Origin: Porphyridium purpureum
Lineage: Eukaryota
Reading direction: 5' to 3'
Length of the DNA stretch: 64,000 nt
Assembly (NCBI GenBank): GCA_008690995.1
Contig: VRMN01000012.1
Span: 62,001-126,000 of the forward strand
The notes under the pieces were generated by a model that was not told the origin of the DNA, did not search any database, and saw only the letters and a program-made list of their open reading frames with translations. Made by a program: the position numbers and the translations under genes. Positions 15,901 to 53,165 of the stretch are shown piece by piece; the first letter of the stretch is position 1; each line of letters starts with the position of its first letter.

Positions 15901-16470
15901 TGCTCCGTGAGCTCGCAAGAAGTCTCGTCCGAGGAGAACACCCGATCTCAGTCGCGGCAGAACTTGAACTGGCACCTCCTGCAGCTGCCAACCCGGCAGT
16001 CGAACCATCAGCTTGCCTGTCTCGCCGGCTCCGAGAGCACGGCCATCCGCTGCGAACGCGAGAATCTGGGTCTTCACAAGCGTTTCTTCGCCTTCAAGCT
16101 GATCGAACAAGACATGGTCTACAAACGTGTGACCCGCTCCGGTGTCAATTTTTGCTAAGACTCGGACCTCCCCGCTTGATGTAGAAATCATCACAGGCAC
16201 TGTGATGGATTCATCATGTATTTTCATTGCGGCTTCGGTGGATTGGATGACATCGACATTCATAGTAAGCTCGTCTTCGAGGCCCCACTGCCAAACTGAA
16301 TCATCGTCGGGGTCCAACGGCTCCAGGCTATGCGCCCCAATGCAGTCCAGCACGTCTGCTCCCCAGTCGTCGTCGTCGTCCTCGCTTCCAAAGTCAATCT
16401 CGTCTATTGCGCTACCCTTTGTACGGGTCTCTAGGCCTGCGCTTGGCCCAGGACCCTGGGCTAGTTTTTT
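12902..16470 (-). pseudogene. pol: Disrupted pol (protease, RT, RNase H, integrase)
   Basis: KIDTGAG, LDLKDGFF, YMDD, FTDAS, EKELLA, SDNG, HPAGNG spread over ORFs 15415-16353, 14564-15418, 13880-14557 and 12725-13879. Confidence 0.92.
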
Positions 16471-17642
16471 TGACCAGGTCCATCGGGTACTCGCACAACT
16501 GGCGCGTAATCTACTGCTTCGTTTGGACAGTCTCGGTGCAGATGGCCCATTTGCTTACACTTCCAGCACTGCATCATATGTATCGGAGGCTTCGGTCACC
16601 TGCTGCCACTGCCTCGCATTTGGCCACTTTGGCGCGACTGATGGACTTGAGAATACATCAGCGGCTGAGCTGGTGCATGTGGTGCTACGACACCCTTGGG
16701 TAACCATGTGCTGGTCGAAACTCCGTCCGCTCTAGGCCCGGACGGCCTCGTCTCCTGTTGGTATCCGACGTCATCGTTAACTTCATCCAACGTGGTACGA
16801 ACCCCACGCTGCTTCGCGATTTTCAGCGCGTTCTTTCGCACCACCGAGACGGCTTCGGCAAAGGACGCACCAACCATCAGGCTCCACTCTTGAAGTGCAG
16901 CAGGCAGACCGCTGAGGAAACGCATCTTGATGTCTTTGTCCGTGAAGAGGACAGTCTGGCAAGTAGCCAGGTCGGCTACGCGATTGCCGAATGCTCTCAC
17001 GCCCTCACGCTCGCCCATACGCAGCGACTCCCACTGCATCTTCAAGTCCGTCGCATGGACATGGTTGTAAAACCGTTGCTGCATCCGGTCGGGGATTCGC
17101 AGTGGCAGCTCGGTTGGGAAACGTTGCACCAGTTGCCACAGGAATCGTTTCGCAGTTCCCTCAAAGGCATACTGCATCCAGTCCAAAATCAATATCTCGC
17201 GGTTCGGGCCGAATGGTGGCGTCGTCGCGATCAGCTTTTCCAGCTTTGACCTTACGAGCAAGAAGTCTGCTGAGCCTTCTTCGGAAATGCGCAAGTCTTC
17301 AAATTCCTCGCGCCAGGTCTTTTGGCGCTCCAGGTTATTGCGCACGTGCATTGTGTTCGCCATCTCGTAGTGCGGTGGCTCTGGCGGGGCAGCACCCATC
17401 CCGAGAACCCGTTCGTCCATCTCAGCCGACGAGCCTGGTCGTGCCCCACCTCCAAGATGTGGAGCAGCTATTCCAACCCCACCTGCTTCTATTTGCGCTG
17501 CCAGCGTTTGCACCGACTCCATGATGCGATTCATCTGGGCCGCCACGGACTGCGTATTGAACCCTGCTTCAGCAGTTGGTCCACTTCCAGCCGGCGCACC
17601 TGACGCTGCCGCTGGGTTCTGTTCTGATTCATGACTGGACAT
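16461..17642 (-). pseudogene. gag: gag with an in-frame premature stop before the zinc knuckle
   Basis: Gag-like ORF stops at 16596; the same frame continues PKPPIHMMQCWKCKQMGHLHRDCP. Confidence 0.85.
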
Positions 17643-19261: not shown

Positions 19262-19732
19262 AGCGTACGCCATGCACTTTGCTGGTCTTACCAACAATCA
19301 GCTTGCCTCTTCTTTGCGCTTCATCTTATGCTAAAGGTCGGTGCGTCGATAATCTTCTCATGAGAGGTAGAGGCAGCGCCGTGGTGCGGATTGTAGTAGA
19401 AGGCCATTCTCTTTTACTAAACCGAAAGACCTTACCTCTAAGCCCTGTCTCTAAGTGGTGCCGAGTCGCCAGGCGAGAGGAGGCTGGCGCTTAAATAGAG
19501 CCGCTGGACTGCACTTCGCTTCTGCCGTGCGGGCACGGCCCTGCGGAGGGGTCGCCCGAGTGGAGGTGAGGGGTCGCGCCCCCTCCCGCGTCTTCGCCGT
19601 CGGGCGAACTAGCTGCCCCAACGGAGCGTCTCCATCCAGCCCGACCGGTTGCGGCGCCCTGGTGACAAGGACCGAACCGCTGCCGGTCTCGCCGTTGGGG
19701 CGTACAGCGATGTCATCACATCTTCACTTGTA

Positions 19733-21126
19733 CAGTAAGTGACAATCAATTAAAAACACCCGTACTTTTTAATTTTTCTTACAAGAAAGGTAAAATTTGT
19801 CCGCAATCGGTGAAGGTCGACAGTTTGGCGCGAAAAAGAGGTGACAAACGATTAAAAACAGCGAAGGTTCAGAGCATTTACCGGCGTATTGAAAGGAAAA
19901 ATCAGGTTTTAGAAGCGGCATTTCTTTCCTTGTGCCAAGGCCACTTCAATGATCCTCTTTGGCATGCTGTCATACAGGTCTCTGACGTAGCAATCGTCCA
20001 TTTTCTCCCACGCATCCTCGACTGCCTTTCGTAGCTCTTTAACATTAGAATACTGCTTGCATCCACCGTAAACCTGACGCGTCAATTGGCCCCATACATT
20101 CTCAATCGGGTTCAGGTCTGGCGAAAGCGCGGGCCAATCCAGAACCTCCACGTTATTGCATTGCAACCAGTCCATCGTGATCTTGGCCCGGTGGGAAGCA
20201 GCCCCATCCTGCATAAATTTGAAGTATCCAAGCGTTTCTTTAGCCTTCACAATGACTCGAGACTTGTCCAACATTTCCACGTATTTTGCGGCAGTCTGGC
20301 CCCCCGAATAGTAGTCTTTTGTGAACAAAAGAGCAAGCTTTCCTTCTCCGTTTATGGCTCCCCAGACCATCAAGCTCTGTCCACCATAAACACGACTCAA
20401 ACATACAGCTGGTTCATCCTCCAGACCCGCCCAGTAGAATTTCAAGCCATCAGGACCGTCCAAATTCCACTTCTTCTCGTCTGTAAATACAACATCTCGC
20501 CATTCCTCGCGTTTCCAGTGGTGATCAAGCACAAATTTTATACGTGCCTGCCGATGGCGATCCTGCAAATGCGGCGTTTTCTTGCACTTCTTCCATATGT
20601 GCTCATTTCTAATGACACGTCGGACCGTTTGCACTGAGACTGACTTGGCACGTGCTGACAAGATGCCTGCTTGCACCTGGCCTGCAGTAGAAAATGGCTT
20701 CGTTTTCAGGACATTCTCAATCTTTCGGCGTAGGTAAGGTGTCATTTTTCCGGCATTCTGATTGGGTCCCCGTTTGCCGTACTGTTCCGGGCATTTCAAA
20801 TAGTTCCTCACTACCGTTACTGAGCGAGATCCTCCCAGTCGGTCCGCGATCACCCGCAATGAGTGACCCTCAGCAACCAAAGCAGTGATTACGCCCTGCT
20901 CTCGTTCAGTGAGGCTTGACGCCTTGCCCATGATTTTCCCCCGCCGCGAGCTCAATTCCACGCACTGTAAAGCTTGGAATGTGTGTTTACCTGCAGTGTT
21001 TTTAATCGTTTGGACGCTTGCAACGGTCACCGCAAGGTCGACCTTCTATCGTTTTGCTCTAAAATTATCTTTTTTGTTAGAAAAAGTAAAAAAGTACGGG
21101 TGTTTTTAATTGATTGTCACTTGCTG
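19733..21126 (-). mobile_element. Tc1/Tc3-like DNA transposon; its last 2 nt and right TA are displaced to 26406-26409
   Basis: TA at 19731-19732 then CAGTAAGTGACAATCAATTAAAAACACCCGTAC, matched in inverted orientation at about 21093-21126; imperfect TIR of about 130 bp. Confidence 0.95.
19909..20931 (-). CDS. Tc3-like DD34E transposase (340 aa)
   Basis: N-terminal HTH, FTDEKKWNLDGPDG, QDGAASH, WPALSPDLNPIENVW; 34 residues between the second D and the E. Confidence 0.95.
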   Translation of the reverse strand: MGKASSLTEREQGVITALVAEGHSLRVIADRLGGSRSVTVVRNYLKCPEQYGKRGPNQNAGKMTPYLRRKIENVLKTKPFSTAGQVQAGILSARAKSVSVQTVRRVIRNEHIWKKCKKTPHLQDRHRQARIKFVLDHHWKREEWRDVVFTDEKKWNLDGPDGLKFYWAGLEDEPAVCLSRVYGGQSLMVWGAINGEGKLALLFTKDYYSGGQTAAKYVEMLDKSRVIVKAKETLGYFKFMQDGAASHRAKITMDWLQCNNVEVLDWPALSPDLNPIENVWGQLTRQVYGGCKQYSNVKELRKAVEDAWEKMDDCYVRDLYDSMPKRIIEVALAQGKKCRF

Positions 21127-21324
21127 TCGCTACCGAGGTATGTGGGTACAGTTGCCTGCGAGATAAGATAGCGGCCGGTCTGGCAAACCTGTGGCGACAG
21201 TGGTAGAGAGAGAGAGAGAGAGTGGACAGAGAGTAGTAAAGAGGACTTATAGTTCCCGGCCCATGGTAGCGGGTGAGAGCCCCCCAAAGCTGACTACTCG
21301 TCCACACGGAAGATAGCAACAACA
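21125..21324 (+). repeat. 5' LTR of the GalEa-like copia
   Basis: Direct repeat of 26201-26400; contains (AG)9. Confidence 0.96.
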
Positions 21325-21437
21325 TTGAATTCAATCCGTTGCGTGGATTGTCTTCGGGGAGAAGGAAGGAATATTCCTATCACAAGGAGAAAACAAAGAG
21401 AACTTTCGCCCTCTGGGCAGGCCTGTGTAGGCACAGG

Positions 21438-24400
21438 ATGTCTCAGTTAAGCGGATCGGTTCTATCCACCCGCGTGCTAGAGGCACGCGAGTTGACGGAA
21501 GAGTACAAAGCACAAATGGCAGACAAGGACACGGCGGAGATCTTGGAGTCCCTTCAGGTTATGTTCACCGGCGAGATCATCAAGAATCTGGGGCCTGTCG
21601 GCCAGTTCTCATTCTACAGGTGGCTTGTAGACAAAGGAGTCACGATTCCTGAGAAAGACCATGGTGGGAACATAATCCCTGTTCTTTTCCGCCTTTTACC
21701 ATTGTTGTCAGTCAGCCAGCGGGATCCGGGATCCACTTCTAATGTGCAGGCTACAGTCGAGGTGGGGAGTATGGAAATCCAATCTGACAACGACAGGTCC
21801 GACGTGCCATACACTGATGGTACATCTCAAGGAGCGCGCGTTGCTATGAGCAAAAGCGAGGAAACCTTCATGAGACGCTACAGTGCATTCACCAAGGCAT
21901 ATCAGAGTGTAGATTCAAAGTTCTACGGTACCGACGAGGAAAATTTCGCCGCATGGCGAATGCAACTCGTAAATCATTTAGCTCTACACAATCTGGATGA
22001 TCAGTACACTGCACAGGTGATCCAAGCCTGTCTCGCAGGCGATGCTCTTACGTTTTATCTTGGGACGTATGTTGACGAAGATTTGACAAAGTTCACCATA
22101 GCAGATGTTCTGGTGGGCTTAAGGGACCACTTTTACACCATCGAGAAGCTTGAACGCCTGCAGGAGCAGTGGGAAAAGGCAAACTTCGCGGAATTCCAGG
22201 CTAACAATTCCAATATCTCTGAAGTGGAAAATTTTAAGTCTTTGACCCAAAGACTCAAAAGAATCCAGCCAAATTTGAAAAAACCATACAGATCCCATGA
22301 AATGCTACGTGACAAGTATAAGCAAATCATGTTCAGACATCCTGTATACGAGCGCCTCGTCATGACCCCGCTGCCAACATCGGCTGACGCACTATGCAGC
22401 AAAATTGAAGCCTTGCTTCTGCATATGCAACCCAGTACAGTCTCGCCAAAGCCGCAGCTTGCTTTCACTGCGCAGCAGACGTCAAGGGCACCTATGGCTC
22501 AGCCAAATCACTCGGTGACTCTGTATCAAGAGCGATACAGGCGTTCGCATGCAAAACCGCAGGCTAATCGGGCAAGATCTACTCCTCGACCGATTAGCAT
22601 CGCATCCGCCAGCAATCCTCGTACGGCAAACGGCACACAGCTTCTTTGCGACATTTGCCAATCCGCAAAACATTTTCGGCGGTTCTGCCCCGACAAGGAA
22701 GCCAAAAGGAAATTTTATACTGCGAATTCAAACTACATGGTGGCAGATTTTCTAGGCTCCGACTCTTCTTCGGGTGCAGACGCAAGCGACAGCACCGACG
22801 ATGTCACCCACACAGACCTCGTTTGGCTTTCGCCAAGTCTTGTTCTTTTTCAACATGACACCGCTTTTGTTATTGTCGACAGCGGCGCTAGCGGTGGAAA
22901 CTTAGTGGGTGAACGATTCTGTCAAGCCCGACAAACCGTCCAAGTTACAGCCCCGCCAAGACGCGTAAAAATGGGCACAAGTGTCTTCGACACTCGCGGT
23001 CAAGCCAAAATTGTCATGCTAGACATAGGTGGAGCAAAGCTCGAATTCTTTGCTGATGTCATACAACTTGACATCCCACCACTTCTTGGATGGCGCGAGC
23101 AAAAGGCGCGACACATGACACTGGACGCGGGCGCCGGCATATTAACGGCCCTTGCCGACAGCGAACAGCTCAACTTTAGGGTCCACACAATTGCTGGACT
23201 CCCTTGCATTTTACTTCCAAATCCAGAAAATCCAGATTCGGTCAAAGAGCAACGTGATGATATAGTCCTGTTCACTGCTACAGAATTGCGCAGATTACAC
23301 GTGCACTTTGGGCACGCACATCTCGACAAAATCCGCGATCTGTTGCAGCGCAGTGGTCAACGTCTGACTTCTGCCGAAATTCGCTGGTATGCAGATATCG
23401 TACAGAAGTGCAAAGCTTGCCAATTCTACGCGGATGTACCACGGCGCCCCATTGTGGCCATGCCAGTCAACCCGTTCTTCAACCGCGATATCGCCATAGA
23501 CACTGTATACTTCGACGGCCTCGCTGTGCTACACATTGTGTGCAAAGGAACCAAATATGCCAGGAATCCTGTTTTACGACGCACGGATGCGGTAACCGTC
23601 ATCAGTACGTTCTATACTTCTTGGATCACCATCTTTGGCATTCCGGCCACATTATCCATGGACCGCGGTACTGAGTTTCTGAATGCAACTTTACTCGAAT
23701 TCTGTGATGGACTCGGCATTGTGATGCGTCCAGCGGCGACTGCAGCAGCCTGGTCGATAGGTGTCGTGGAACGACACCATAAGCCCCTGAAAACTGTGTA
23801 CTTTCGCTTGAAAACAACATTCCCAGACCGCGATTGCGAATTATTGCTCGCACAAGCAGAATTTGCACTGAATGCCACGCTTGGCAACCGCTACACATGT
23901 CCATTTTTACTGGTCTTCGGTCAATTACCCGTGTTCCCGCTTGGCACAGTCCAGGACCAACACAAAATGACCACAGACCGCCATATGGCTATGGAAGTCG
24001 CGCGTAGAACGACCGAAGGTATCATTGCTACCAGGCGCATTCGCGAGGCAACGCACACAAGCGTTTCAGAAAGCGCACCAGCTTTGCTGAGCCGTGGAGA
24101 CCGGGTGCTGTTCTGGCGCCCAAGTGAGAGAGCTTGGGTCGGACCCGCGACCGTGGTCCATGTACACGGAGATGCGAAAACGGTAAAAGTTGAATACAAA
24201 ACGCGGAACTACCACCCAGCTCTCCACCAAGTCAAATTGTTCGTCGCGGATCAAGTGCTATGGGCCGACGAGACTGAGACTTTCTCCAAAATTCTGCAAG
24301 TATCAGAACATTCACTCAGAAGAAAATGTGACTTTACGATATCGCGCGCCAAAGAAATCGATGGATGGCATGCAAAGGGCGTAGTGGAAGCCATTCGCAC

Positions 24401-25769
24401 GACAGAGCGCGCGAATCTAGACACGCGGTGGGTGGACTCCATCAAACTTTCAGATGGAAAAGAGTTCCCGAAATCACGTCTCGCCTTGCGAGAGTTTGCA
24501 AAATTGCAACCACATGGTTCCATGCTTCGAGACTCACCTACGACATCACGATGGACTGTGCGCGTTCTGCTCTCAGTAGCACTTAATCAATCATGGTCCA
24601 TATCATCCTCGGACGTCGAACAAGCCTTTCTTCAGAGCCAGCCTCTGAAACGTCGCGTTTTGGTGCAACCTCCAAAAGAAGCTGGTCTACCATCTGGTGT
24701 CCTCTGGCTTCTGAAGAAAGCCGCCTACGGTCTGGTGGATGCTGCGTACATCTGGTACGAGTCTCTCCGCGACGTGCTCGTCAACAAAATGCAAATGAAA
24801 GAGTCCATGGTAGACCCGTGCTTATTTGTTGCGAACGAGGGTGCATGCACAACCCAAGTCGACGATATCTTAACCGTGGGCACGCCCCAATTTCTCGAAG
24901 CTCAAAAAGAAATTCGCAAGTATCTACAGCTCCATCGAGAAAAACGTGAGAAGTTCATTTTCAACGGAGCCCAGCTCACAGTCAAGGAGAACTGTGTCAG
25001 TATTGATTTACAAGCGTATATCGAGAAATCTCGCATTGTGGCAGTGAGAATCACCACTTATAGTGACTTCCAGCGCTTCCGCGGCCAACTGCTATGGCTT
25101 GCTGCAAATTCGAGACCAGACTTAGCGTATCCTGCTGCACAACTCTCGCAAATCTCACAAGACATGTTCGACCATAAGGTGTACAAAGAGTTAGTAGCCC
25201 AAGCGCGGGGTGCAGTCTGCACAATGCCATATTTGCACTTCAACCGCCTTCACGGCACCGTGGCAATTCAAGTATTTGCGGACGCCAGTTTCGCAAACAA
25301 TGTTGACTTGAGCAGCCAGCTCGGCTTTATCATCTGTCTCGCGGACAGCCAAGGCCATTATAATATTGTGCACTGGCGTTCGGGAAAATCCCGCCGTGTT
25401 GTCAAATCGACTCTCGCAGCCGAGACGCTCGCAGTCATCGACGCATTCGACCACGCCGGTGCAGTGAAGCATATGCTCCAGGAACTAGGAATTCCCAGCC
25501 CGGAAGTTATTCTTTACACGGACAATCGATCCGTATTTGACGCCATGTCCAAGCGCACGGCCTGCACCGAGAAAGCCGTACAGATATCTGTCGCCATCCT
25601 GCGCCAAGCATTGCAAGAAGCAGCGCTCACCAAAATCGGACTTCTGTTGTCTGCTGACAATCCAGCCGATGCATTGACCAAAGCGCGCGGCAACTCTGAG
25701 CTAGACTCGCTCCTGCGTGCTGAAGTCTATCACCCTAAGGTTGTGGAATGGTTTGAAGTGAAAAAGTAG
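21438..25769 (+). CDS. Gag-Pol polyprotein of the GalEa-like copia
   Basis: CDICQSAKHFRRFC, IVDSGAS, LHVHFGH...CKAC, DRGTEF, KSRLALR, LKKAAYGLVDA, QVDD, FADASFAN, NPADALTK. Confidence 0.95.
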   Translation: MSQLSGSVLSTRVLEARELTEEYKAQMADKDTAEILESLQVMFTGEIIKNLGPVGQFSFYRWLVDKGVTIPEKDHGGNIIPVLFRLLPLLSVSQRDPGSTSNVQATVEVGSMEIQSDNDRSDVPYTDGTSQGARVAMSKSEETFMRRYSAFTKAYQSVDSKFYGTDEENFAAWRMQLVNHLALHNLDDQYTAQVIQACLAGDALTFYLGTYVDEDLTKFTIADVLVGLRDHFYTIEKLERLQEQWEKANFAEFQANNSNISEVENFKSLTQRLKRIQPNLKKPYRSHEMLRDKYKQIMFRHPVYERLVMTPLPTSADALCSKIEALLLHMQPSTVSPKPQLAFTAQQTSRAPMAQPNHSVTLYQERYRRSHAKPQANRARSTPRPISIASASNPRTANGTQLLCDICQSAKHFRRFCPDKEAKRKFYTANSNYMVADFLGSDSSSGADASDSTDDVTHTDLVWLSPSLVLFQHDTAFVIVDSGASGGNLVGERFCQARQTVQVTAPPRRVKMGTSVFDTRGQAKIVMLDIGGAKLEFFADVIQLDIPPLLGWREQKARHMTLDAGAGILTALADSEQLNFRVHTIAGLPCILLPNPENPDSVKEQRDDIVLFTATELRRLHVHFGHAHLDKIRDLLQRSGQRLTSAEIRWYADIVQKCKACQFYADVPRRPIVAMPVNPFFNRDIAIDTVYFDGLAVLHIVCKGTKYARNPVLRRTDAVTVISTFYTSWITIFGIPATLSMDRGTEFLNATLLEFCDGLGIVMRPAATAAAWSIGVVERHHKPLKTVYFRLKTTFPDRDCELLLAQAEFALNATLGNRYTCPFLLVFGQLPVFPLGTVQDQHKMTTDRHMAMEVARRTTEGIIATRRIREATHTSVSESAPALLSRGDRVLFWRPSERAWVGPATVVHVHGDAKTVKVEYKTRNYHPALHQVKLFVADQVLWADETETFSKILQVSEHSLRRKCDFTISRAKEIDGWHAKGVVEAIRTTERANLDTRWVDSIKLSDGKEFPKSRLALREFAKLQPHGSMLRDSPTTSRWTVRVLLSVALNQSWSISSSDVEQAFLQSQPLKRRVLVQPPKEAGLPSGVLWLLKKAAYGLVDAAYIWYESLRDVLVNKMQMKESMVDPCLFVANEGACTTQVDDILTVGTPQFLEAQKEIRKYLQLHREKREKFIFNGAQLTVKENCVSIDLQAYIEKSRIVAVRITTYSDFQRFRGQLLWLAANSRPDLAYPAAQLSQISQDMFDHKVYKELVAQARGAVCTMPYLHFNRLHGTVAIQVFADASFANNVDLSSQLGFIICLADSQGHYNIVHWRSGKSRRVVKSTLAAETLAVIDAFDHAGAVKHMLQELGIPSPEVILYTDNRSVFDAMSKRTACTEKAVQISVAILRQALQEAALTKIGLLLSADNPADALTKARGNSELDSLLRAEVYHPKVVEWFEVKK

Positions 25770-26200
25770 TGTACACTGCACTTTATGGGTGTTCACTTAC
25801 ACACCAATATAGATTCTGACGGAAATTGAACTGTTCCGTGGGTCTCAAGGAAGGTGAACAGGAAGCAACAGTTTTCGTCGATTACGCTGTCTGTCGTCGT
25901 GTCCCACGCGGTGGTTACGTGTGACAAGCCAAATGCGCTTCGCCCACAAGCTTGTGCGGGCATGAAGGGCAACGCGTGAAGGTTTGATGTTTTATTCTTT
26001 TTCTTTGTATGTTTGAGTCTGTTGAATTCAGCAATTTTCGAGTGCGTGTTTTTGTCCTGAGAAGGTTTTTCCGCCGTGCTGATTTGAATTTGTTTCTTCT
26101 ATTCTAAGTACTCCATTTCGTTGTCCAAGACTCACGTTGATGTAACAATTCCGTGTCGCCTCGGTTGATGCGCTCATGCCACAAAAGGAAAAGGGTTGTG

Positions 26201-26400
26201 TGTCACTACCGAGGTATGTGGGTACAGTTGCCTGCGAGATAAGATAGCAGCCGGTCTGGCAAACCTGTGGCGACAGTGGTAGAGAGAGAGAGAGAGAGTG
26301 GACAGAGAGTAGTAAAGAGGACTTATAGTTCCCGGCCCATGGTAGCGGGTGAGAGCCCCCCAAAGCTGACTACTCGTCCACACGGAAGATAGCAACAACA
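26201..26400 (+). repeat. 3' LTR of the GalEa-like copia
   Basis: Direct repeat of 21125-21324. Confidence 0.96.
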
Positions 26401-30141: not shown

Positions 30142-30576
30142 TGATCGTGTTACTTGGCAGACGACGGCCAGCAAGCGTGCAGATGTGAGACCCATCTGCA
30201 GGTCTGTGCGTGACCTGCATCGTCGCGAGCGGCGACGCTGTGCGGCGGGCCTTTGACCTCTTCCAGCTCGTCTCGCGTGCACGAGTGCAAGCCGTTGCGC
30301 GCGGAATTGTGCTGCGCAACATCCAGCACTGAAAATGCAGTGTGGACTGTTTACTGCTGCAAGGCAGCTTTGAATTCAAACGAGGCGCCACAGCCGAGCG
30401 CGCGGCGGCGTGGAGTCGCCCGGTGCGTGGCTTGACTGGCGTGGTTGCGCGGCCAGCTATATATGTAATGACTCGTATGTCGCGCAGGCGCGAGACTGGG
30501 CGAGCGGCTGCCAAGGTGTGCCTGTCGGAACACAGCGTATCGTAGAAGCCAACGAAGAGGTGGTCTGTAAAGCAGG

Positions 30577-32757
30577 ATGGGGTTCGGATTGGGGAAGAAG
30601 GCATCGGTGGATCAGGCGGTGAAAATGAGACCAAGGCATAAGGACGTGCACACGCAAACGAGCCTATCGTACTGGCTAAACCCGAAAAATCGTGCTCTTG
30701 CACGTACCAGTAGTGAGGTGGTCAAGCCAATCCACATGCAGAGAAGTTGCCACACTCAGACTTGCTCGTCGGTCACGAGTACGGTGACTGGCAGGGAGTT
30801 ACCACCTGAGCATGGTACTGAAAAAGTGGCAGACTTTCGAAGACATCGGACGGTGGAAGAAATTTCTTATCCTGAAGACATGGACGATGTGGAAAATATG
30901 GATCCCAATAGAATTGTGCAGATTACTCCTTCGAATCGAAGGCTTTCCGAATCGAGAGACCAGTCTAAGGCTTGGAAGATATATCCAACTGTCGTACCGA
31001 CTATATTGAATACGCCACACTTTGACATGTTCGAGACGTCGACTGGCTTGAATTATAAAGGCCAGAGTACGCCTGGACCCGGAGGACCCGAGCCGGAGCC
31101 CGAGCCGCCGAGCCCGAGCCGAGCCGGAGCCGAGCAGCGTGCAGGTAGTGTTCGCAGAGTTGAGCAGCCTGAGTCGTCAGGAAAACAATCGTCCACTTGT
31201 ACAGTGGTCCTGCCGGAAATGAAGAAGCGCGTGTCGGATGCAGAAATCAATGATCTGGCTGAAAATCATGTCATTGCAAAACCAGCACTCACGTCTGAAT
31301 GTCAGCCAGAGGCCTCAAAGATAACGGCGCCGCCTTCGAAACTGAACCGCGATGGCCAAGCAACGCAACATGTTACACGCAAAATGAGAACATTGGAGAG
31401 GCAGCAACAGCACTTAGGACCTGCAAGACCCGCTTCGGTGCAAGTCTTGGTTCAAGAAGGCGCAGCGTACCACTGTGCACAGAACTGGAATCCCAGCAAT
31501 TCAACTTCGCATGTGCTGCCTATTCGAAGCGTGTCAAAAATCCGCGCAGGTGCAAAGCTAGTCATAGACACATTCCAGACACTCACGACCTTTCGTGTGC
31601 TGAAACGAATTGCCTTGCCGTCAAGCAGTACCACATCTGCAAGTCCAAGTCCGGCTTTTTACACTGCCGTCGTTCATGCTCGCTGCGCAGGTCATCGACC
31701 GAATGGTGCCGTGACTAGCAGTAGTACCGTGCTTCTCAAGGTTGTTGCGCCTGGCAGTATCTGGGATTTTTACATCATCAATATCATCCGGGAACGTATC
31801 GGAGGCTCGGGTCGTGCGGATCTGTTGCCATTTATGCCATGTGCTCCGCGCCTTTTCCACCACCAAGACGAGTGTATTCTGGCGCTGAAACTGGCGAGTG
31901 GCACGCTGCGGGGCGACGATACGTTTGTTCCACTCGGCACACTCCTCAAAGGGCAGCGCCAGACTGTTCGGCGTACGTGCGCGAACCCGGTTGGCCCGGC
32001 CGATGCTTCACAAATGGACGAGCATATTGTAGCGTATTATTTGCACGCCCTTGTACGAGTCGTCCACGGCATGCATCTTGCGTGGGTAGCGCACGGGGGA
32101 ATCTGTGCAGATGTGATTATGGTGAAACGCGGTCGAGATGCCGGAGCGCCAGTAGCTCTCCAGCATCCGAGGAATCCGCATCATACAAACGGTGGTGGTG
32201 GGTCCAAAAATGTGCTCTTGGACGACCCCGTGCTGCTCTTTGTCGATTTTCAGCACGCTGTGGACCTCCGGCTTGCCGAAGCTGCCAGTCGCAGAGCATG
32301 TGGCTCCGCCGCGCCATCTTGCGACAAGCTCAGCGCAGTCCTGTTTGAAGCCGACTTGAATGCCATTGGTCGGTTGGTCCAGAACCTGCTGAGCGCGTGT
32401 ACTAGTCGCACATCTCGATACGAATCTATATCGCGCGACCTATGGCTTCACGACTCTCTCTGGAGTCGTATCATGGACGAGCTGTGTCCCCGCGGAGCGC
32501 TTCAAAACCAGACTGCCTTTGATGGTCCCAACGACACTGTTCAGCCGCAGTTTAACATCTTCGGCCGTCACAATGCGACGCAGGCCCCACTGGAAACCGA
32601 CGCAGGCTTCGCCTCACTATCGCAGCCGCGGAAGCTGCGCTCCGGACACGACACGCTGCGCGCACTCGCGCGCGTGGAGCAGCAGCTGCGCACGTTCATC
32701 GACGCGCGCGCCGTACGTATCCATCACGCGCTGCAGCGCTTCTTCTTCAGCCAGTAA
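30577..32757 (+). CDS. Bub1/BubR1-like kinase-domain protein, probably a pseudokinase
   Basis: LLKVVAPGSIWDFYI, MDEHIVAYY, HGGICADVIMV, LFVDFQHAVDLRL follow the Bub1 pattern (LKV..P...WEFYI, HGDIKPDN, LIDLG.SID). Confidence 0.6.
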   Translation: MGFGLGKKASVDQAVKMRPRHKDVHTQTSLSYWLNPKNRALARTSSEVVKPIHMQRSCHTQTCSSVTSTVTGRELPPEHGTEKVADFRRHRTVEEISYPEDMDDVENMDPNRIVQITPSNRRLSESRDQSKAWKIYPTVVPTILNTPHFDMFETSTGLNYKGQSTPGPGGPEPEPEPPSPSRAGAEQRAGSVRRVEQPESSGKQSSTCTVVLPEMKKRVSDAEINDLAENHVIAKPALTSECQPEASKITAPPSKLNRDGQATQHVTRKMRTLERQQQHLGPARPASVQVLVQEGAAYHCAQNWNPSNSTSHVLPIRSVSKIRAGAKLVIDTFQTLTTFRVLKRIALPSSSTTSASPSPAFYTAVVHARCAGHRPNGAVTSSSTVLLKVVAPGSIWDFYIINIIRERIGGSGRADLLPFMPCAPRLFHHQDECILALKLASGTLRGDDTFVPLGTLLKGQRQTVRRTCANPVGPADASQMDEHIVAYYLHALVRVVHGMHLAWVAHGGICADVIMVKRGRDAGAPVALQHPRNPHHTNGGGGSKNVLLDDPVLLFVDFQHAVDLRLAEAASRRACGSAAPSCDKLSAVLFEADLNAIGRLVQNLLSACTSRTSRYESISRDLWLHDSLWSRIMDELCPRGALQNQTAFDGPNDTVQPQFNIFGRHNATQAPLETDAGFASLSQPRKLRSGHDTLRALARVEQQLRTFIDARAVRIHHALQRFFFSQ

Positions 32758-32760
32758 ATC

Positions 32761-33035
32761 CGTGATTCGGAGGTCAAGCTGTACCCCAGTATCGAGCGCC
32801 GGTGGTTACGAGGTTGTCGATCGCAGCCGGCGGCGGCGCCGTGCGGGTACTTAAACAGCGCCGATTCGTTCCGTCGTAGACGCTCCCAAAAATGCCTCGA
32901 GTCAGAGGAGTTTGTGGTAACGACTAAAGCAGGTAGCCTTTGTTATTTTGTTTTGGTCTAATCTTCTCGGCAGCGAACTTCGGCTCGTTGTTCCCACACC
33001 ATTAGTACTAAGCCTACCACTAGTAAGGCTTCTTG
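32761..33035 (+). repeat. 5' LTR (275 bp) of the hybrid element
   Basis: No difference seen from 38135-38409. Confidence 0.96.
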
Positions 33036-33050
33036 GGTTATGAGCCCAGC
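33036..33050 (+). promoter_or_regulatory. Primer binding site complementary to the anticodon arm of initiator tRNA-Met
   Basis: GGTTATGAGCCCAGC directly after the LTR, similar to the Drosophila copia PBS GGTTATGGGCCCAG. Confidence 0.85.
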
Positions 33051-33315
33051 CGCTATCCTCGCGGCTGCGTTCCTCTCTCTCACCATCCTACTCCCTCTAC
33101 TATCCGCGGTTTTAGCTCTGCCCATACAGCAAAGAAGGCAAGCGCGACATATAAGATTGCTCGCGGAGGAGCAGGCGCGCACAGAGCAGCGACTGGAAGT
33201 CCTCGAAAACCTCGTCGCTAACTATCGACCATACACGAGCGCGGCTCGTAAAGGCGATCGCGCAGTCCGACGAAGAATCGCCGAAACTGAGAGCGAGGAA
33301 CAGCAAACGCTGTAG
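33040..33315 (+). CDS. Small upstream ORF (91 aa): hydrophobic N-terminus, then basic and coiled-coil-like segments
   Basis: MSPAAILAAAFLSLTILLPLLSAVLALP then QQRRQARHIR...EQRLEVLENL; ATG lies inside the PBS. Confidence 0.45.
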   Translation: MSPAAILAAAFLSLTILLPLLSAVLALPIQQRRQARHIRLLAEEQARTEQRLEVLENLVANYRPYTSAARKGDRAVRRRIAETESEEQQTL

Positions 33316-33360
33316 CAAAAAGACTCGTGCACAAAGGCACAGAGCAACGGGATCTCCTCA

Positions 33361-36300
33361 ATGGAATCAGGTCAAAGGACCCCCACCAGGCTCGAGCAGG
33401 AGCGCACCGCAGCGCTCGCTCGCCAGCAGCAGCAGGCCATGCAGGCCGAGCTGGCTGCACAGGCCGCTGCGCAACAACAACAACAGCAGCAGCAGGCAAC
33501 GACCAGCGCCGCGAGTGACATAGAAAACATACGCCAGGCGTTGGCCCAAGAGTTCTCGCGAATGCGCGAGGAGCTCCTTGGGCAGGTGCAAGAGGAGCGT
33601 AATGCTCTTGCTGCCGAGATGCATCGATGGCGCAACGGCGCATACCCGCGAGCCGAAGCAGCGTCGCAAGTCAAAGCCGCGCCAATGGCGCCATTTCTTG
33701 GGGACAGGGATGCACTCGCGGTCGGCGCGTGGTGTGAGACCGCTAGCGAGCGGATCTACATCCAGCTCCAAGAGGAGTATCGCGCCGGCTCTCATCCGTG
33801 GGATGATGATGCTGAACAGAAGTGTGTGCGTATCGCCGCCTCCTTCTTTCATGGGGCGTCTAGGCTTTGGTGGTCAGTGCTTGACCCAAAGCCTGTCCGG
33901 TTTGATGACTTCTTGCAGGCGTTCAGGCGGGAATTCGAACCCATCGCCTCGGACCAGGTCGCGCGTGACAGGCTTGCCGCTTGTGCGCAGCGCAACCGCA
34001 GCGTCCACGACTACGCAAACGATTTCGGAAACTGCCTGCTCAGGCTCCCGTCGGTCGGTGATTCCGAGCGGCTCGATCGTTTTGTGCGCGGTCTGCAGAG
34101 CAAGATTCAAATTCAGGTGCTGCTAAGGCAACCTGCATCGTACCATGAGGCGCTTCGCGCCGCATTGGCAGTCGACGCCGTATTTCGGCAAAGCGTGCAC
34201 GCGTCAGCATTTGCTGAAAAAGATGCAGCGCCAATGGATCTAGGATCGGCCGAGGCTCCGCGCCGACAGACACGAGCACCGAACAGAAAAAGCAAGAAAC
34301 GCCCGAAGAACCAGCAGCGCACCGTGCCGAGGAGCGCGCCGCAAGCACCGTCAAGGACCGCCCGCGTCGGAGCGGATACGTGTCATAACTGTGGGCGCCG
34401 CGGCCACTGGGCCGCCGAATGCACCCACGAGTTGGGTGTCGCGGAGTTTGAGATTGGTGCGGCCGCACTCGCGAAGTCGGACTTGATCCAATTGCCCGTT
34501 TTTATCAATGGCCACGCATCGAACGCGGTAGTCGATACCGGTGCAACCGCGACATTTGTATCAGAGGCGGTGTGCAACAAACTTAGAGTCCCTTTCACGA
34601 AAAGCGGGTCGAACGGGCCACGAATTCGTCTGGCCGATGGACGCACCAAGCCAATCACGGGCAAAGCGTCGTTCTTGCTTACGGTGCCAGGCATCGTCGA
34701 AGAACGCACAGAGGCATGGGTGCACAGCGGGCACCATGCAATGATCCTTGGTCTCGACTGGCTCAACGAGCACCAGGCCAAGCTGCAGGTCGGCGGCAAG
34801 ATCTTGCTGGATGTCTCTACTCCAAGACAATACACAAGGAACGCCGCTAACGCAAGGACACCGGATACTTTGGAATGTGCCGCGACCAATGAGCAAAATG
34901 AAAGCAGCGGGGGCACGGTCGGCATTGAGCACGAGGTGCTCCACATGCCTGCACGCGCTGATTGCGATGCCTGTCAGGCATCCAAGCTTCAGACCATGCG
35001 CGCACCACGCCGCACGCAAACGCCCCAGTTCTCTGCGTTCAACGATACCGTTTCCGTCGACCTAGTCGATCCAACTGAGTACGGTATCTGCGGCGCGAGA
35101 TGGCTCCTGACGCACAGGGACGCGACTACCGGGTGGCTTGTTGTGGCGCCCCTGGCGAACAAGACCGCGGAAAGCGCGTTGACCGCTTTCCTTGAAATAC
35201 AACGCGGTCGCGGCTGGCCGCGACTCGTCAGGAGTGACGAAGGCCGCGAGTTCCAGGGCGCGTTCGAAGTCGCACTGAAGGCCAACCTCGTGGCCCACGA
35301 ATCGGGACTAGCTCACCGACCAAATACGCACGCAACGCACGAACGCGTACACCGGGATCTCAATGCAGGAGTACGCACGCTGCTGCTGACCGCCGGGCTC
35401 GAGCCGGAATGGTTCGCGTTCGCCGCGAAGTACTGGGCCAACGCACGTAATGCCGCCTGGAAAAGCAGGGATGGTATCGCGCCGTATCAGGCTCGCTACG
35501 GACGCAAGTGGGAGCGCGATATCCCGCCTTTTGGCCGTGGAGTTTATATCATGACGGCGGAACGTGCCAAGTTTCACCCCAGGGGTATGCTGTCCCTCGT
35601 CATGGGCATCCGATTCCCATCACCGACCACCAACCGCACCCCGCTCAACGTTCTCGCAATTCCGCTCGACAATCTCCGCCCCTCAGCCGCCAAGTGGGTG
35701 GGAGAGTGGAGCTTGTCAACACGTGTGTTCCCTAGCAAGGAACAACGCTCTAATGAGGGAGCAGTGGATCGGATAATGCCTGAGTGGCATGCAGTGCTCG
35801 ATCCCGATGGGGATCGGACGCCGGAGCGTGCTCGATCAGAGGATCATGACGAGGAAAAGGCGCAAGCCCTGCAAAAGCAAGACATTGACGTCCCGACCAC
35901 GACGGCGTCAAGGGAGGAGTACGAGCGACGCTCATGGAGCACCGAGATGGATGACGCACTGCGTGCCGGGTACGCAGCTCATGGGCCGAAATGGAAAACC
36001 ATTTGCGATACAGGTGGCGAAGCGCTGAGCGGAGTCGGGGGCCTGGCGTTGCGCTCGCACGCGAGCGCAATCGGCCTGCTCGGAGAAAAGGCTACGGGGT
36101 TAGGTAAGCACCGACGCGGCCGGACAGCAGGAGACATCCGCGCCCGTCAAGCCGTCCTCAATGTGGCGCAGCAAATGCAATCGGAGAGCGCCGCACCGGG
36201 CTGCGATAGCTTGCACCTTGGTGTGGCTGAAGTAGTATCGTTTGCCACGCATTCGCGGACGCAGGCGGGACGTCTGGCCTTCACCAAAGAAATGAATACG

Positions 36301-37911
36301 CTCATCAGTAGCGGTGCGCTACCATTCCAGAAAGCACTAGGCCGATGCGAAGCCGCACGCGTGCCGAACGCGCGGTTTGTTAAGTTGAAGCCGATCCTCG
36401 CCATCAAGAACAGCGAGATGCCGCCGGAACACCGAATGCTTAAATGTCGCATCGTGGCACAGGGTTGCCACATCACGGATGTGGATGGCAAACGTGCACC
36501 GCCTGAAACACCACAGTTTGACCGGCCGCCTGGTCTTTCCAGCATACGCGCGGCCGTGTCCGTCGCACTGCACGTGCACGGCGCCGCAGCTGATGCATTA
36601 TTTTTCGATATCGATGCCGCGTATGTCCACGCGCCATTGAGAGGGAACCCCACGTTCGCGTATTTCAAGTCTCTGGTGCCGTTTTTGGAAGGAATCGTTA
36701 CACGTCATGTTCTGCGGAAGATCGCAAGTTTGAAGGACCCCGTGGTCCCGTTGCCAATGGCACTATATGGTCTGCCGCGCGCAGGTTTCGATTATTCCGC
36801 GTACGCCCGCCAGAAACTGTGCGCCGCCCAATGGAGTGAGTCTGCTGCAGACAAGAACGTTTATTGGCGTCGGCGCGCCGGAGTGCTAACGCTACTAGTG
36901 CTTTACGTCGATGACGGGGCCATTTTGGGCACCACTGCCTCGGTGAACGAGGCCATGCACGAGCTGGTGCGCATGTTCAGGATCACGAAGAGCGCGCAGC
37001 TTCTGTCGGAAAGCTCACGCGCACGGCCCATACGCTATCTCGGTGTCAACGTGTACCGCCAGGATGCAGCCTGGATCTTTGATAGTGGCGAGTACGCCAG
37101 ATACATCGCCACGGCCCACAAAGGGGGGCGCGCGAGGGCGACACCGTTGTCTACACGAATCGAGACGAGCGAGAAATTGAATGCCTGCCCACCGGAAGCG
37201 CGCGCTTGCTTGGGCAAGTTGATGTGGCTGTCACGTACGACACGACCGGATTTGGCATACGCGGTGGCCATGATTGCCAGACATACCGATCGATGGTCAG
37301 TGGATGTCCAGCGTGCCATGGATGAGGTATTGGCGTATCTCGCGAAGCACGCAAATATTACCTTACAATACGCGATGCCAAGCACAGATAACAAGGAGAT
37401 CAACATTGTCTGCTTCACTGATTCGGATCTGGATCCCGGCCGCTCCACAAGTGGTGTCGCTATCTTTCTTGCGTCCGGCGGCACTCGTCATCTTGTCGAG
37501 TGGTCAAGCCGTCGCCAAAGGCGCGTCGCTACGTCAACCGCGGAGGCGGAATTGGTGGCAATGCACAGTGCGGTGCAGAACGCGACGTTCCCAATCGCAA
37601 CATTCCTGGATGATGTATTTGCGAAGTGGCCGCGTACAACCGTGCGATGCGATAACGAGACCTCACTCGGTGCGGTGTCGAAGGGATTCAGCCCAGTGCT
37701 AGTTCATGCAAACAAGACCCAACGCATAAGCCTCGCATGGCTGCATGAGCTGCACAGCGAGCATCTCGTCGCTTTTGAACACGTACCCACCAGGGCCAAC
37801 GTGGCTGATCCGTTCACCAAGCCCGTAGGCGCCGACGTCTTTCGCGGACACGCGCGCGCGTGGGGTTTGTCATCGCCTCTCCTGTCCCCGTCCACTGGTG
37901 ATTCGCGTTGA
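33361..37911 (+). CDS. Gag-PR-INT-(Myb-like)-RT-RH polyprotein
   Basis: PMDLG, CHNCGRRGHWAAEC, VVDTGAT, ILGLDWL, HEVLH..CDAC, RSDEGREF, KCRIVAQG, LYGLPRAG, LYVDD, TRPDLAYAV, STAEAEL, NVADPFTKP. Confidence 0.95.
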   Translation: MESGQRTPTRLEQERTAALARQQQQAMQAELAAQAAAQQQQQQQQATTSAASDIENIRQALAQEFSRMREELLGQVQEERNALAAEMHRWRNGAYPRAEAASQVKAAPMAPFLGDRDALAVGAWCETASERIYIQLQEEYRAGSHPWDDDAEQKCVRIAASFFHGASRLWWSVLDPKPVRFDDFLQAFRREFEPIASDQVARDRLAACAQRNRSVHDYANDFGNCLLRLPSVGDSERLDRFVRGLQSKIQIQVLLRQPASYHEALRAALAVDAVFRQSVHASAFAEKDAAPMDLGSAEAPRRQTRAPNRKSKKRPKNQQRTVPRSAPQAPSRTARVGADTCHNCGRRGHWAAECTHELGVAEFEIGAAALAKSDLIQLPVFINGHASNAVVDTGATATFVSEAVCNKLRVPFTKSGSNGPRIRLADGRTKPITGKASFLLTVPGIVEERTEAWVHSGHHAMILGLDWLNEHQAKLQVGGKILLDVSTPRQYTRNAANARTPDTLECAATNEQNESSGGTVGIEHEVLHMPARADCDACQASKLQTMRAPRRTQTPQFSAFNDTVSVDLVDPTEYGICGARWLLTHRDATTGWLVVAPLANKTAESALTAFLEIQRGRGWPRLVRSDEGREFQGAFEVALKANLVAHESGLAHRPNTHATHERVHRDLNAGVRTLLLTAGLEPEWFAFAAKYWANARNAAWKSRDGIAPYQARYGRKWERDIPPFGRGVYIMTAERAKFHPRGMLSLVMGIRFPSPTTNRTPLNVLAIPLDNLRPSAAKWVGEWSLSTRVFPSKEQRSNEGAVDRIMPEWHAVLDPDGDRTPERARSEDHDEEKAQALQKQDIDVPTTTASREEYERRSWSTEMDDALRAGYAAHGPKWKTICDTGGEALSGVGGLALRSHASAIGLLGEKATGLGKHRRGRTAGDIRARQAVLNVAQQMQSESAAPGCDSLHLGVAEVVSFATHSRTQAGRLAFTKEMNTLISSGALPFQKALGRCEAARVPNARFVKLKPILAIKNSEMPPEHRMLKCRIVAQGCHITDVDGKRAPPETPQFDRPPGLSSIRAAVSVALHVHGAAADALFFDIDAAYVHAPLRGNPTFAYFKSLVPFLEGIVTRHVLRKIASLKDPVVPLPMALYGLPRAGFDYSAYARQKLCAAQWSESAADKNVYWRRRAGVLTLLVLYVDDGAILGTTASVNEAMHELVRMFRITKSAQLLSESSRARPIRYLGVNVYRQDAAWIFDSGEYARYIATAHKGGRARATPLSTRIETSEKLNACPPEARACLGKLMWLSRTTRPDLAYAVAMIARHTDRWSVDVQRAMDEVLAYLAKHANITLQYAMPSTDNKEINIVCFTDSDLDPGRSTSGVAIFLASGGTRHLVEWSSRRQRRVATSTAEAELVAMHSAVQNATFPIATFLDDVFAKWPRTTVRCDNETSLGAVSKGFSPVLVHANKTQRISLAWLHELHSEHLVAFEHVPTRANVADPFTKPVGADVFRGHARAWGLSSPLLSPSTGDSR

Positions 37912-38134
37912 GTTGAGAAGGGTTAGATTTCGCTCCTATCTTCGAGCGAGCGACGGGCTGCTAATGATTGCCCGTTTCGCAGTGAAGTTCATGGCATGGC
38001 CGTCGCCGGATGTACACCCCCAGAACGGGGGCGACTTTATGTGAGTCCGAGGGACCCATCTGTGGGGGAACCTCATTGTTTGATATGATAGGGCTTTAGA
38101 TACGCGCAAAATATGGGATAAGCGTGAGGGGGCG

Positions 38135-38409
38135 CGTGATTCGGAGGTCAAGCTGTACCCCAGTATCGAGCGCCGGTGGTTACGAGGTTGTCGATCGCAG
38201 CCGGCGGCGGCGCCGTGCGGGTACTTAAACAGCGCCGATTCGTTCCGTCGTAGACGCTCCCAAAAATGCCTCGAGTCAGAGGAGTTTGTGGTAACGACTA
38301 AAGCAGGTAGCCTTTGTTATTTTGTTTTGGTCTAATCTTCTCGGCAGCGAACTTCGGCTCGTTGTTCCCACACCATTAGTACTAAGCCTACCACTAGTAA
38401 GGCTTCTTG
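38135..38409 (+). repeat. 3' LTR (275 bp) of the hybrid element
   Basis: Preceded by GAGGGGG plus 2 nt and followed by the TSD AAATC. Confidence 0.96.
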
Positions 38410-38563
38410 AAATCCACTGTACACTATCACAAAGCGTACTGTACACTACTGGTGACCGGGAGATCGCGCGCGGAAGTGATGGACGGAAAGAAGGAGAGTA
38501 TTGGCAGCAGCAAGAGGTGTGGTCGAGTTCCGTCCTGAAGCAGCGGCGACGACGAGCACTGCC

Positions 38564-47131: not shown

Positions 47132-49611
47132 GGTCGTCGTGCCGAGCGCGTCGTGGCCGTCGCACAACCGCCCAGCGTCCGCCACTCGCGCCGTGCCCGC
47201 TGGTTTAACGGCGTATCGGCTTATCCGTCTATCGGCGTAGCGGTTTAACGGCTCATCGCTCTTTGGTTTGGCTTGCGGCTGTGTGGCAGGCGGTGGCGGG
47301 GTGTGCTGCGTGTTGGATCCAAGGCAAAAGATGGAGAAGATGATAAGCATGGCCACCCAAGATCTTCTGCAGCAAATATAGACCGTGAGTGTCTAAGGCC
47401 TTTGTGTTCGCTGCGCTCGGGAACTGCCTTGCAGCTCTTGTGCGAAACTTGAACTCGCGTAAAATGTGAGCTCTGAGCAATGAAGAGCGTGTAGAGGCAG
47501 GCCAAGTCGTAATCTCTGCTCGGATGCTCGCGAATGATTGGACTGTAGGCCACGGCTATGGATACCAGTACTTCATTCAGTGTGGCGCAGGAGCATATGT
47601 CACGCGCTTGACGCGGGGATTCGGCGGGAGTCGCAAGAGCTTCGCAGCCGTACTTGTTTCCAATTTAAATGCCCAACTGCGCCAGCTCGCTTGTCTCCGC
47701 TGCCGCGTTCTCCACATCCCAGCAAACGCTCTCTCGTCAAACAAATCGGCAAGAGCCTAGCAGCAGCACGAGCTTCTCGCGTCTACCTCGCTTTCTTCAT
47801 CTGCCTTGCAGCCATCAGCTCAACATCGAATCCCTCTTGTCCGGTCCTGCACACAACCCTCTCCGATGTGTCTCATCCAACTCTCGTTACCCTTGAGCGC
47901 CATTCCTTGAAGGTACACCATGTACAGTGCGTACAGCAGGTACAATAAGTACAGCGACTCATCCATGCGCGAGTTTATAGTAAAACACGCGTTTTTTACA
48001 ACAAGCTGAGCATGCGCACAAGGTCTTCTGATTCGGACCCAAAATTAGCGCGCCCAGCGAGATTCTTCCATTTCGAGTACAGTCCAAAACAGGACTTTAG
48101 AATCAGAGCACCAAAAACGGGGCACCACACAGGAGAAACGGGAGCGTGCGTTGCGCACACAATGATTCCTCTTTGCAACGAGCTTCACTTGATCCTGGAT
48201 CGCGAGCCATCCATCCATTCATCTATCTATCCAAAGCGAGCTCGTCCACCACAACCACCACCACACTAATAACCACCACCACACTAATAACCACCACCAC
48301 CGCGCTTTTGTATGCCCGTTTGTCTTAAAAAAAACAGCCCTGTCCCACTCACATGGTACAAACAGTGGAAATCACACATTGCCGAAACATAACCCTTCAC
48401 CGCACCCGCTTCTCACACACCACACCCCCCACGCCTGAATTCAAAGTGTGTGGTCCATCACCATCGTCGTCTTGCTTACGAACTTGCCACTCCAGCCATG
48501 CAAGCCCCGCCATTCCAAGCGCATCCCGCAACGCTATTTTTACCTTTTATCTTTTCCTTCCACATGCAGTTGTTTTGCAAAGCACCATCGTGCTTTTCAC
48601 ACGCCGTGTTGTGCAACTCACACGTGGACCCTTTCTCATCTTGCACCCAGATTTCCGCATGTTTTTATCCCTCGCGCTCTATTTTTAGCGTGCTGTAAAG
48701 TGTGCGAGAAGCGGAGGTACGGAGGAACGGGGCGGGGATTGAGCTGGAAGGGTCATTCATTCATGGATTTTCAATAGTGGTTGCTTATGGGTTGTGGCTC
48801 GGCGGGTGTGTGTTATTTTTATGGCTGTAATGGAATTCGACGTAGAAACGGCGTGTGTGTGTGTGTCAAGGGTGGTGGTGGTGGTGGTGGGACACACGTG
48901 TCCCCTTGAATTTCGGGTGGTTTTGCTATGTGCGTGTGCGTGCAGGAGTGTGACGTGCAGCCTTCGTCGGTATTCAAGAGGCGATGATGCTGACGATGGC
49001 GACGCCGGAATAACTGCGGGTGCGGCGGTTGCTGCTGACTAGATCGCGACGCGGGGTAAGCGCGGTGATGACGAGGAGCAGGATGAGGCGCTGTGCATGC
49101 GTGTAACGCGCGGGTTACGCGTGCGGCGTGGCTTTGCAAGACGGAACATGGATTGAGGGGTGCGCGCGCGCGCGCGGTTTACGTGCGTAACCCCGTTTTC
49201 TGTCCCAACATGTCTCGTGGCCTCGCGCCCTCTTTCGGTCGATCGTCACGTCGCCAGATTGCCAGATCGCCATCGCTACGTTCCGCCTCGCCTCGGTGCT
49301 GATCAAGACGTGAACGCTGGCAGAGCCCTGTGGAGTTGTTTGCGTTGGTGCTGACGCGGGCGCGGCGCGAAGTGCAGCAAAGCAAGGTCGCAGACGCGCG
49401 CGCATGCGGGGATGGCTCTGAATTCGAACGGCTCCCTTGCGTGGGTCGCTCTGCGTGGTGCACGCAAATGCGGCGCGCATTGGGTATAAGACGGGCGCCG
49501 CGTGACCGTGCCAGGTGGTGAGGAGACGAGACGGATGCAGACGCGGATAAGGGAGCTTGACTAGAATTGTGCCGGAGTTTGCCTTTGGCTGGTTCGCGCT
49601 TTGCTTTAGGC

Positions 49612-52491: not shown

Positions 52492-52739
52492 GCAATCAAT
52501 TTTGAAAGTATACCACTCCACAGCACAACTGTTGGACGTGGTTCGAGGAATAAGATGAGAAAGTAACCATTGCGACTAAAGACATACCCTGATAGGAATT
52601 TTTGGATAAATCACCTTGAAGCCGAGCCACATTGGTGTCCGAGCGCGCAGCCCGTTTCCAGCACGGCGGATACGTTGGGCCCTTTCTCCAGTTCGGCGCG
52701 CGCACGGTTGCTCTGCTGTCATCCGCCCCCAAGCCACTC

Positions 52740-53165
52740 CGCGCAATTCAGTGACACCACCGCACCTCCACGGCGCCTTTCTGCGCGCCCCGCGCAACCC
52801 TCGCGCTCCAGCTCCTCCGTCACACGCACCCGCCGCGCCCGCGCGATTCCGGCGCCCGGCCCCACCCTCCCGACCGCGCCTAACCCTCAACCGCGCGCGC
52901 ATTACACGGCCCAATTCGCGTGACGTCCACTGTACCTCATGCGTTGGGGCTAGTGGTGCAGACACTGTACCGCACGGTGTGGTGGTTTGGCGAGTTGAGC
53001 GGCGCGGCGCAAAGCGGATTCACGCACGCTTCTGAGGCGCGTGTGGCGTGTTCGGAAAAAGGAAAGGAGGAGGGAATAAAAGAGGGAATGAAGGGAGGAA
53101 CTAAGGAATGAAGGTCGAATTCAAAAGCCGCAAATCATCCGCTTGAACGGCGCACGCAAAGGACG
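52740..53165 (+). repeat. Diverged non-coding upstream block, copy at about 63530-63995
   Basis: Shared CGCATTACAC..CCAATTC, CTGTACCT.ATGC, GACACTGTACCGCA, GCGAGTTG and GGTCGAATTCA in the same order. Confidence 0.7.

Follow-up and report, generated by a model that had tools for sequence, protein, structure and literature searches.

The window analyzed, a 64-kb stretch of the Porphyridium purpureum genome, contains an intact Ty1/copia element at positions 32761 to 38409 (Table 1). Direct long terminal repeats (LTRs) with a target site duplication (TSD) in the 4- to 6-bp range, the domain order with a copia-type reverse transcriptase (RT), and the presence of both a tRNA primer-binding site (PBS) and a polypurine tract (PPT) place it in the Ty1/copia group (Pseudoviridae); its termini are not the canonical 5′-TG...CA-3′. 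Another contig carries a further full-length copy (KAA8499353.1), which differs at 3 of 1,516 residues, and several related families sharing 40 to 68% identity were found within P. purpureum; relatives in this species include KAA8491195.1, KAA8492641.1, and KAA8490719.1.

Table 1. Features of the copia element and its insertion site (positions in the window)
Feature	Position	Strand	Details
Left TSD	32756..32760	+	AAATC; overlaps the TAA stop codon (32755-32757) of the upstream gene
5′ LTR	32761..33035	+	275 bp, CG...TG
PBS	33036..33050	+	GGTTATGAGCCCAGC; complementary to the tRNA-Met anticodon arm (half-tRNA primer type); abuts the LTR
gag-pol ORF	33361..37911	+	Single intact ORF encoding 1516 aa, counted from the first ATG; domains in the order Gag, protease, integrase, RT, RNase H
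Gag	33832..34428	+	Retrotrans_gag PF03732/Ty3_capsid-like plus CCHC zinc knuckle; E 8.6e-11 and 2.2e-05
Aspartic protease	34498..34767	+	PF13975, PF13650; E 7.1e-11
Integrase	34927..35730	+	Zinc finger H-x3-H-x6-C-x2-C, D567, D626, E661, beta-rich C-terminal part
Myb-like domain	35926..36090	+	PF00249; between integrase and RT; end approximate
RT and RNase H	36217..37890	+	Copia-type RT, YVDD at 36904; boundaries approximate
PPT	38125..38134	+	TGAGGGGGCG; abuts the 3′ LTR; from 10-mer comparison across copia loci
3′ LTR	38135..38409	+	Same sequence as the 5′ LTR
Right TSD	38410..38414	+	AAATC

With E values of up to 1 accepted, RVT_2 was identified in all nine family members and PF00249 in five of them (best E value, 3.3e-05); in P0001, a near-identical copy of the element's protein, PF00249 reached an E value of only 0.16. 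The Myb-like domain might, at a guess, serve in target or DNA binding. The Gag and protease region (33832-34767) matches Pfam families usual in Ty3/gypsy elements (PF03732, PF19259, and PF13975), in place of which many ordinary copia matches carry PF14223 and PF22936. A direct comparison of these domains with the proteins of the window's gypsy elements gave a weak match (best E value, 0.009) and thus no clear evidence of a chimeric origin.

The element was inserted exactly at the stop codon of an upstream ORF on the forward strand (30571-32757; 728 amino acids from stop to stop), for which there was no Pfam or PDB match, and approximately 155 bp ahead of a DUF3067 gene (38564 onward). Read depth in one public run, X6, drops from the gene to the LTR and again to the interior; if this is an RNA run, which is a guess, the LTR may form the 3′ end of the gene. 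Elsewhere in the window lie a gypsy element with TG...CA ends (1087-8322), a broken gypsy element on the minus strand (∼12725-17642), and a second copia element with TG...CA ends and the TSD CTTGC (21125-26400), in which no obvious PBS was seen by eye. A DNA transposon with inverted ends of ∼67 bp (19732-21127) overlaps, at its right end, the left TSD and first bases of this second copia element. At 49561-62505, large proteins that are probably secreted and contain Ser-Pro and Ser-Asp-Lys repeats are encoded in a cluster; three of them are paralogs.

The two LTRs are identical over all 275 bp (95% upper bound on divergence, 1.1%), and the element is intact and likely young. Each LTR begins CGTGATT and ends CTTCTTG, and AAATC borders the element at both ends, just as the initial annotation had described; a 5-bp match at this fixed register is expected by chance with a probability of ∼0.001. 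A TG lies at LTR positions 3 and 4, as had also been claimed, and the CA closest to the right LTR end is 16 nt inside. No combination of TG...CA ends with a TSD was found when 0 to 39 nt were trimmed from either end of the element. The two neighboring LTR elements have TG...CA ends, so the CG...TG termini do not reflect a host-wide or assembly quirk. Apart from one chance 12-mer, no other pieces of this LTR were present in the 64-kb window. Taken by itself the window is ambiguous: the right TSD, too, is followed by a C, so that AAATCC could be read as a 6-bp TSD bordering an element with GT...TG ends. This is one form of a wider alternative in which the unusual ends arise from an error of boundary, from mutation after insertion, or from misassembly. 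Since the LTRs are identical, the four end changes that mutation after insertion would require are implausible. Also against this alternative, the left junction was present in contigs of two public runs, although one of them is possibly the source of the window.

Other insertions were sought by comparing contigs from 4 of 21 public runs with the 5′ LTR, and 21 of the 57 loose ends were viewed. In runs X4 and X6, GCGGAT directly followed the terminal TG, giving the right flank of a second insertion. Two records from runs X2 and X4 diverge from the reference ahead of 32761; the first of these corresponds to the PPT, and in the second the allowed letters end [GT]C[GT][CGT]A, a fit to GCGGA with a chance probability of 0.012. 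The left flank was deduced from this two-record consensus under a tie rule that gave 0 violations in 90 positions, and it places an A, which is not an LTR base, ahead of the C. The left and right flanks of these sites lie on separate contigs, and from their pairing we infer that the second site probably has the 5-bp TSD GCGGA, with the C belonging to the LTR, i.e., CG...TG ends. The 6-bp reading fails here because it would need GCGGAC to equal GCGGAT; only 5 bp with a C start fits. The perfect 5-bp TSD that had been proposed from the window therefore holds, and the explanation by boundary error or artifact is very improbable and can be regarded as largely refuted.

At a third site the left flank ends TTTTC in X4; the right side is only weakly compatible (chance probability, 0.19) and differs in X1 at one TSD position. 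Loose ends of X1 and X6 also contain the left end of a diverged relative, GCG|CGTGATT. The joint in both runs returns to the reference at 33033, so that the terminal TTG before the PBS is kept, although 234 nt of the LTR interior could not be aligned at 85%. This relative thus appears likewise to start with CG and end with TG. In X2 a further relative has TATTG just before the PBS, and a sister subfamily with ∼88% identity is also present in the contigs. Flank contigs of X1 and X6 stop at 32790 (LTR start + 29), as expected of a repeat edge. No empty site with a single AAATC was seen in the viewed contigs from the four runs. The evidence from these contigs supports CG...TG ends that are real and common to at least two lineages, rather than a one-off mutation, with ends read for two and partly three lineages, all from Porphyridium, in a clade that comprises 12 sequences or more.

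That clade was delimited in a midpoint-rooted FastTree phylogeny of RT-RNase H, for which 124 of 184 sequences were kept from a sample enriched for proteins found via this integrase; the second copia element of the window was excluded by the length filter, and named reference elements were absent from the tree. The element sits in a 12-sequence clade (support, 0.985), 11 members of which are labelled Porphyridium. This is nested in a larger clade of 61 sequences marked by a very compact zinc finger of the integrase, H-x3-H-x6-C-x2-C (34927-34990), identified in 36 of the 61 sequences inside the large clade and in 1 of 63 outside, in a sample biased toward this integrase. Three canonical loci with half-tRNA-Met priming (L017, L028, and L032) belong to a group that excludes the element. 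Metagenome relatives were found at 79 loci, with 21 to 36% identity. Among the 24 metagenome loci in the same large clade, no credible LTR pair or half-tRNA PBS was identified; the 12 of these whose ORFs were mapped have very long ORFs, several of which run off the contig. No relatives of the element were found in the viral collection.

The PBS was said to begin directly after the terminal TG, and it does (33036 follows 33035). Its complement was present in 111 of 129 tRNA genes from 120 pattern-selected viral loci, all of them tRNA-Met(CAT), with these virus-encoded genes used as stand-ins for the host's own tRNA. Judged on the same stand-ins, priming would be of the half-tRNA (Hemivirus-like) type. 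Five distant copia loci share this PBS; the bases immediately before GGTTATG are CA in four of them and TA in the fifth. The PPT 10-mer, TGAGGGGGCG or CGAGGGGGCG, lies just downstream of pol in four distant copia loci and is followed by TG in three of them and by TA in the fourth, with two of the hits (L026 and L029) sharing the same context and so not independent. The purine tract claimed 2 nt before the CG of the 3′ LTR is present, but the 2-nt gap likely belongs to the PPT itself, given the 10-mer followed by TG in three of the four loci. Two of the metagenome loci may have other noncanonical copia ends: L057 (3204-3415 and 7748-7950) seems to start with AGTT and has a variant PBS, and in L061 (904) TA follows the PPT.

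The CG and TG of the element thus appear, on sequence comparison, to occupy the places usual for TG and CA in canonical relatives. The PBS and the PPT each border directly on an LTR, in the same register as in those relatives, and the cDNA is therefore likely blunt. If it is blunt as in Ty1, the absence of 3′ processing would be normal. The initial annotation had proposed that the integrase either has altered end recognition or omits 3′ processing; of the two, altered recognition is the likelier, and the omission would be no anomaly. The real oddity would accordingly lie in the G at both joined 3′ ends rather than in any missing 3′ processing.

The same register bears on a second explanation, close to an idea in the initial annotation, in which two former spacer bases at each end came to be integrated whole. 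The CG would then be the duplicated last bases of the PPT ahead of an old TG, and the terminal TG the next two bases copied from the tRNA. The strong version has the primer cleaved 2 nt farther into the anticodon stem, so that its last bases are CCA, with two tRNA bases left behind on the cDNA by RNase H each time the element replicates. The inner TG at LTR positions 3 and 4, retained in the diverged relative, is as this account would have it, as is the distant locus L051, where PPT|TGAT resembles the element minus its first CG. At the right end the terminal TG, as had been claimed, lengthens the complementarity to tRNA-Met by 2 nt. It pairs with the next two bases in 79 of the 111 stand-in tRNAs, for which the pattern used in the search already specified the G, and is also demanded by the anticodon stem symmetry that the PBS itself implies; an unselected TG would match the tRNA by chance in 1 of 16 cases. 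Inside the extension, the element would have TG...CT ends, which among noncanonical types are reported as the most common in lotus (PMC9804982). However, the right end so defined is CT in this element and AT in the X2 relative, never CA, and no extension is needed for the PBS to stand in the register usual for half-tRNA priming. The general LTR start consensus TGTTRNR, as given in PMC3601003, already supplies a T at position 3, so that a single base arising by chance would suffice for the inner TG. Extension would also require two separate events, both of which happened to yield a G-3′OH. On balance we regard it as rather unlikely.

The integrase was modeled with a pLDDT of 93.7. In profile searches against the PDB, the best sequence match was Ty1 integrase (7z0h; E value, 1.4e-34), and a fold search with the model gave as its top matches the intasome integrase of prototype foamy virus (PFV). 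The enzyme is predicted to be of the ordinary DDE type with D567, D626, and E661 intact, in a fold comparison that has no power to resolve base specificity. Retroviral integrases are described as touching the DNA end with a helix (PMC3228729), and the equivalent helix of the element's integrase carries a family-typical motif. Histidines at the positions of PFV S217 and N224 were found in all nine close relatives, and in 17 and 55, respectively, of 137 distant relatives. Ty1 has His at the S217 position and the TG...CA copia element of the window has His at the N224 position. A role for the His residues beside the catalytic Glu as the cause of the changed ends was dropped, as they are also found in TG...CA elements. 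Across the nine close and 137 distant relatives, Ty1, and the TG...CA copia element of the window, no integrase residue could be linked to the changed ends.

The lack of an outstanding end-contact residue is what would be expected of a third explanation, a relaxed integrase with little end specificity of its own. Specificity would come from packaging, and CG...TG would owe its fixation to drift or to selection that acted on pairing with the primer rather than on integration. Ty1 integrase is described as relaxed in vitro (PMC2939329), and the eight non-TGCA types reported as abundant among lotus Copia elements cluster with canonical ones (PMC9804982). The two LTR ends of the algal element also have little inverted sequence in common past the terminal C...G pair. 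Against this stands the conservation of both terminal dinucleotides in lineages whose LTR interiors fail to align at 85%, which suggests selection on the ends, and we hold a relaxed enzyme to be quite unlikely.

As a class, non-TGCA copia elements are well known, and CG...TG lies outside the plant end rules as published in the sources cited here. A survey of 50 plant genomes reports 870 such elements in 42 of them, with the first T alone invariable (bioRxiv 10.1101/137141). For lotus, the eight non-TGCA Copia types are reported always to have T as the first base and A or T as the last (PMC9804982). Further reported examples are TGTT and AACA ends in Rosaceae copia elements (PMC5659011), TA..CA in the copia element TARE1 (PMC3701649), and TG..GA in Tos17, a plant non-TGCA Copia element. 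The element resembles these as described in its Copia domain order, insertion beside a gene, 5-bp TSD, identical LTR pair, and short LTR (275 bp, compared with reported means of 272 and 316 bp). Unlike them, it has three of the four terminal bases changed, with both ends affected. Its first base is C, compared with the T given as invariable in the 50-genome survey (the A of AACA being a reported exception), and its last base is G, compared with A or T alone in lotus. It therefore departs from the end rule of the described plant types (first T or A, last A or T) on both sides. Beyond plants, TG/CA is reported as missing from the diatom families CoDi3.2, CoDi4.2, and CoDi4.3 (PMC2806351), which are likened to the element by that lack alone, from a description without end letters that would allow C or G ends. 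Insect Zam/gypsy elements are listed with AG...YT ends and no TG/CA (PMC3601003, Table 3); Zam is a Ty3/gypsy element with A...T ends, whereas the algal element is a copia with C...G. A search of titles and abstracts outside subscription journals and Repbase turned up no paper on this family or on CG...TG ends.

Priming by half of tRNA-Met is known from Drosophila copia and Ty5. It is also reported for Osser, Bryco, and Gymco-II (PMC6317226), which the element resembles in a PBS that matches the tRNA-Met anticodon arm and abuts the LTR. Unlike the canonical lineages primed in this way, its LTR ends in TG, not CA. The GalEa clade, reported from Porphyridium, is described as having the PBS TGGTAGCAGAGC, matching the full 3′ end of tRNA-Met (PMC5445492), whereas the PBS of the element is of the half-tRNA type. 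Ty1 likewise primes with the full tRNA acceptor end (PMC2939329). According to the same source, Ty1 has TG...CA ends, a blunt cDNA is joined with a 5-bp stagger, and altering the ends abolishes the in vivo use of DNA fragments. The algal element is like Ty1 in integrase sequence and 5-bp stagger and, if the register is read correctly, in its blunt cDNA. Retroviral integrase is reported to expose an invariant CA (PMC3395085).

In vivo, Ty1 is dependent on the dinucleotide at its ends (PMC2939329), so the lasting G ends imply a shifted or loosened preference. In what we regard as the most likely, and a fairly probable, account, an integrase with a preference shifted from A to G joins a blunt cDNA that has pyrimidine-G at both 3′ ends, with a stagger of 5 bp. 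Under this shift in preference, tRNA-Met cut in the anticodon stem would prime the minus strand right at the edge of U5, and RNase H cleavage directly after TGAGGGGGCG would prime the plus strand. The blunt cDNA would undergo no trimming, and its two G-3′OH ends would attack the target 5 bp apart. Such ends could have originated by a change of the 3′ terminal A to G at both ends, turning TG...CA into CG...CG with the inverted C...G terminal pair kept. The right-hand CG would then have become TG, adding two base pairs with the tRNA. This route takes three steps, all of them transitions, and would be the simplest origin. A bolder version, in which the integrase of an entire red-algal copia clade is respecified from CA-3′ to pyrimidine-G-3′ and the right end, instead of being copied from the element, comes at each round from a tRNA-Met fragment that is cleaved two bases farther on and ends in CCA, is unlikely.

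As the initial annotation had anticipated for standard finders, programs that require TG...CA or listed plant motifs would, from the way they are built, overlook the CG...TG family or trim it wrongly. The 3′ CA is the most conserved integration signal of retroviruses and LTR retrotransposons. The reason for this conservation is described as poorly understood (bioRxiv 10.1101/137141). An intact multicopy element in which both joined ends are G, residing beside canonical elements in the same small genome, offers a natural variant for studying which features of a DNA end are read by an integrase, and it is equally suited to asking whether the enzyme and its ends coevolve.
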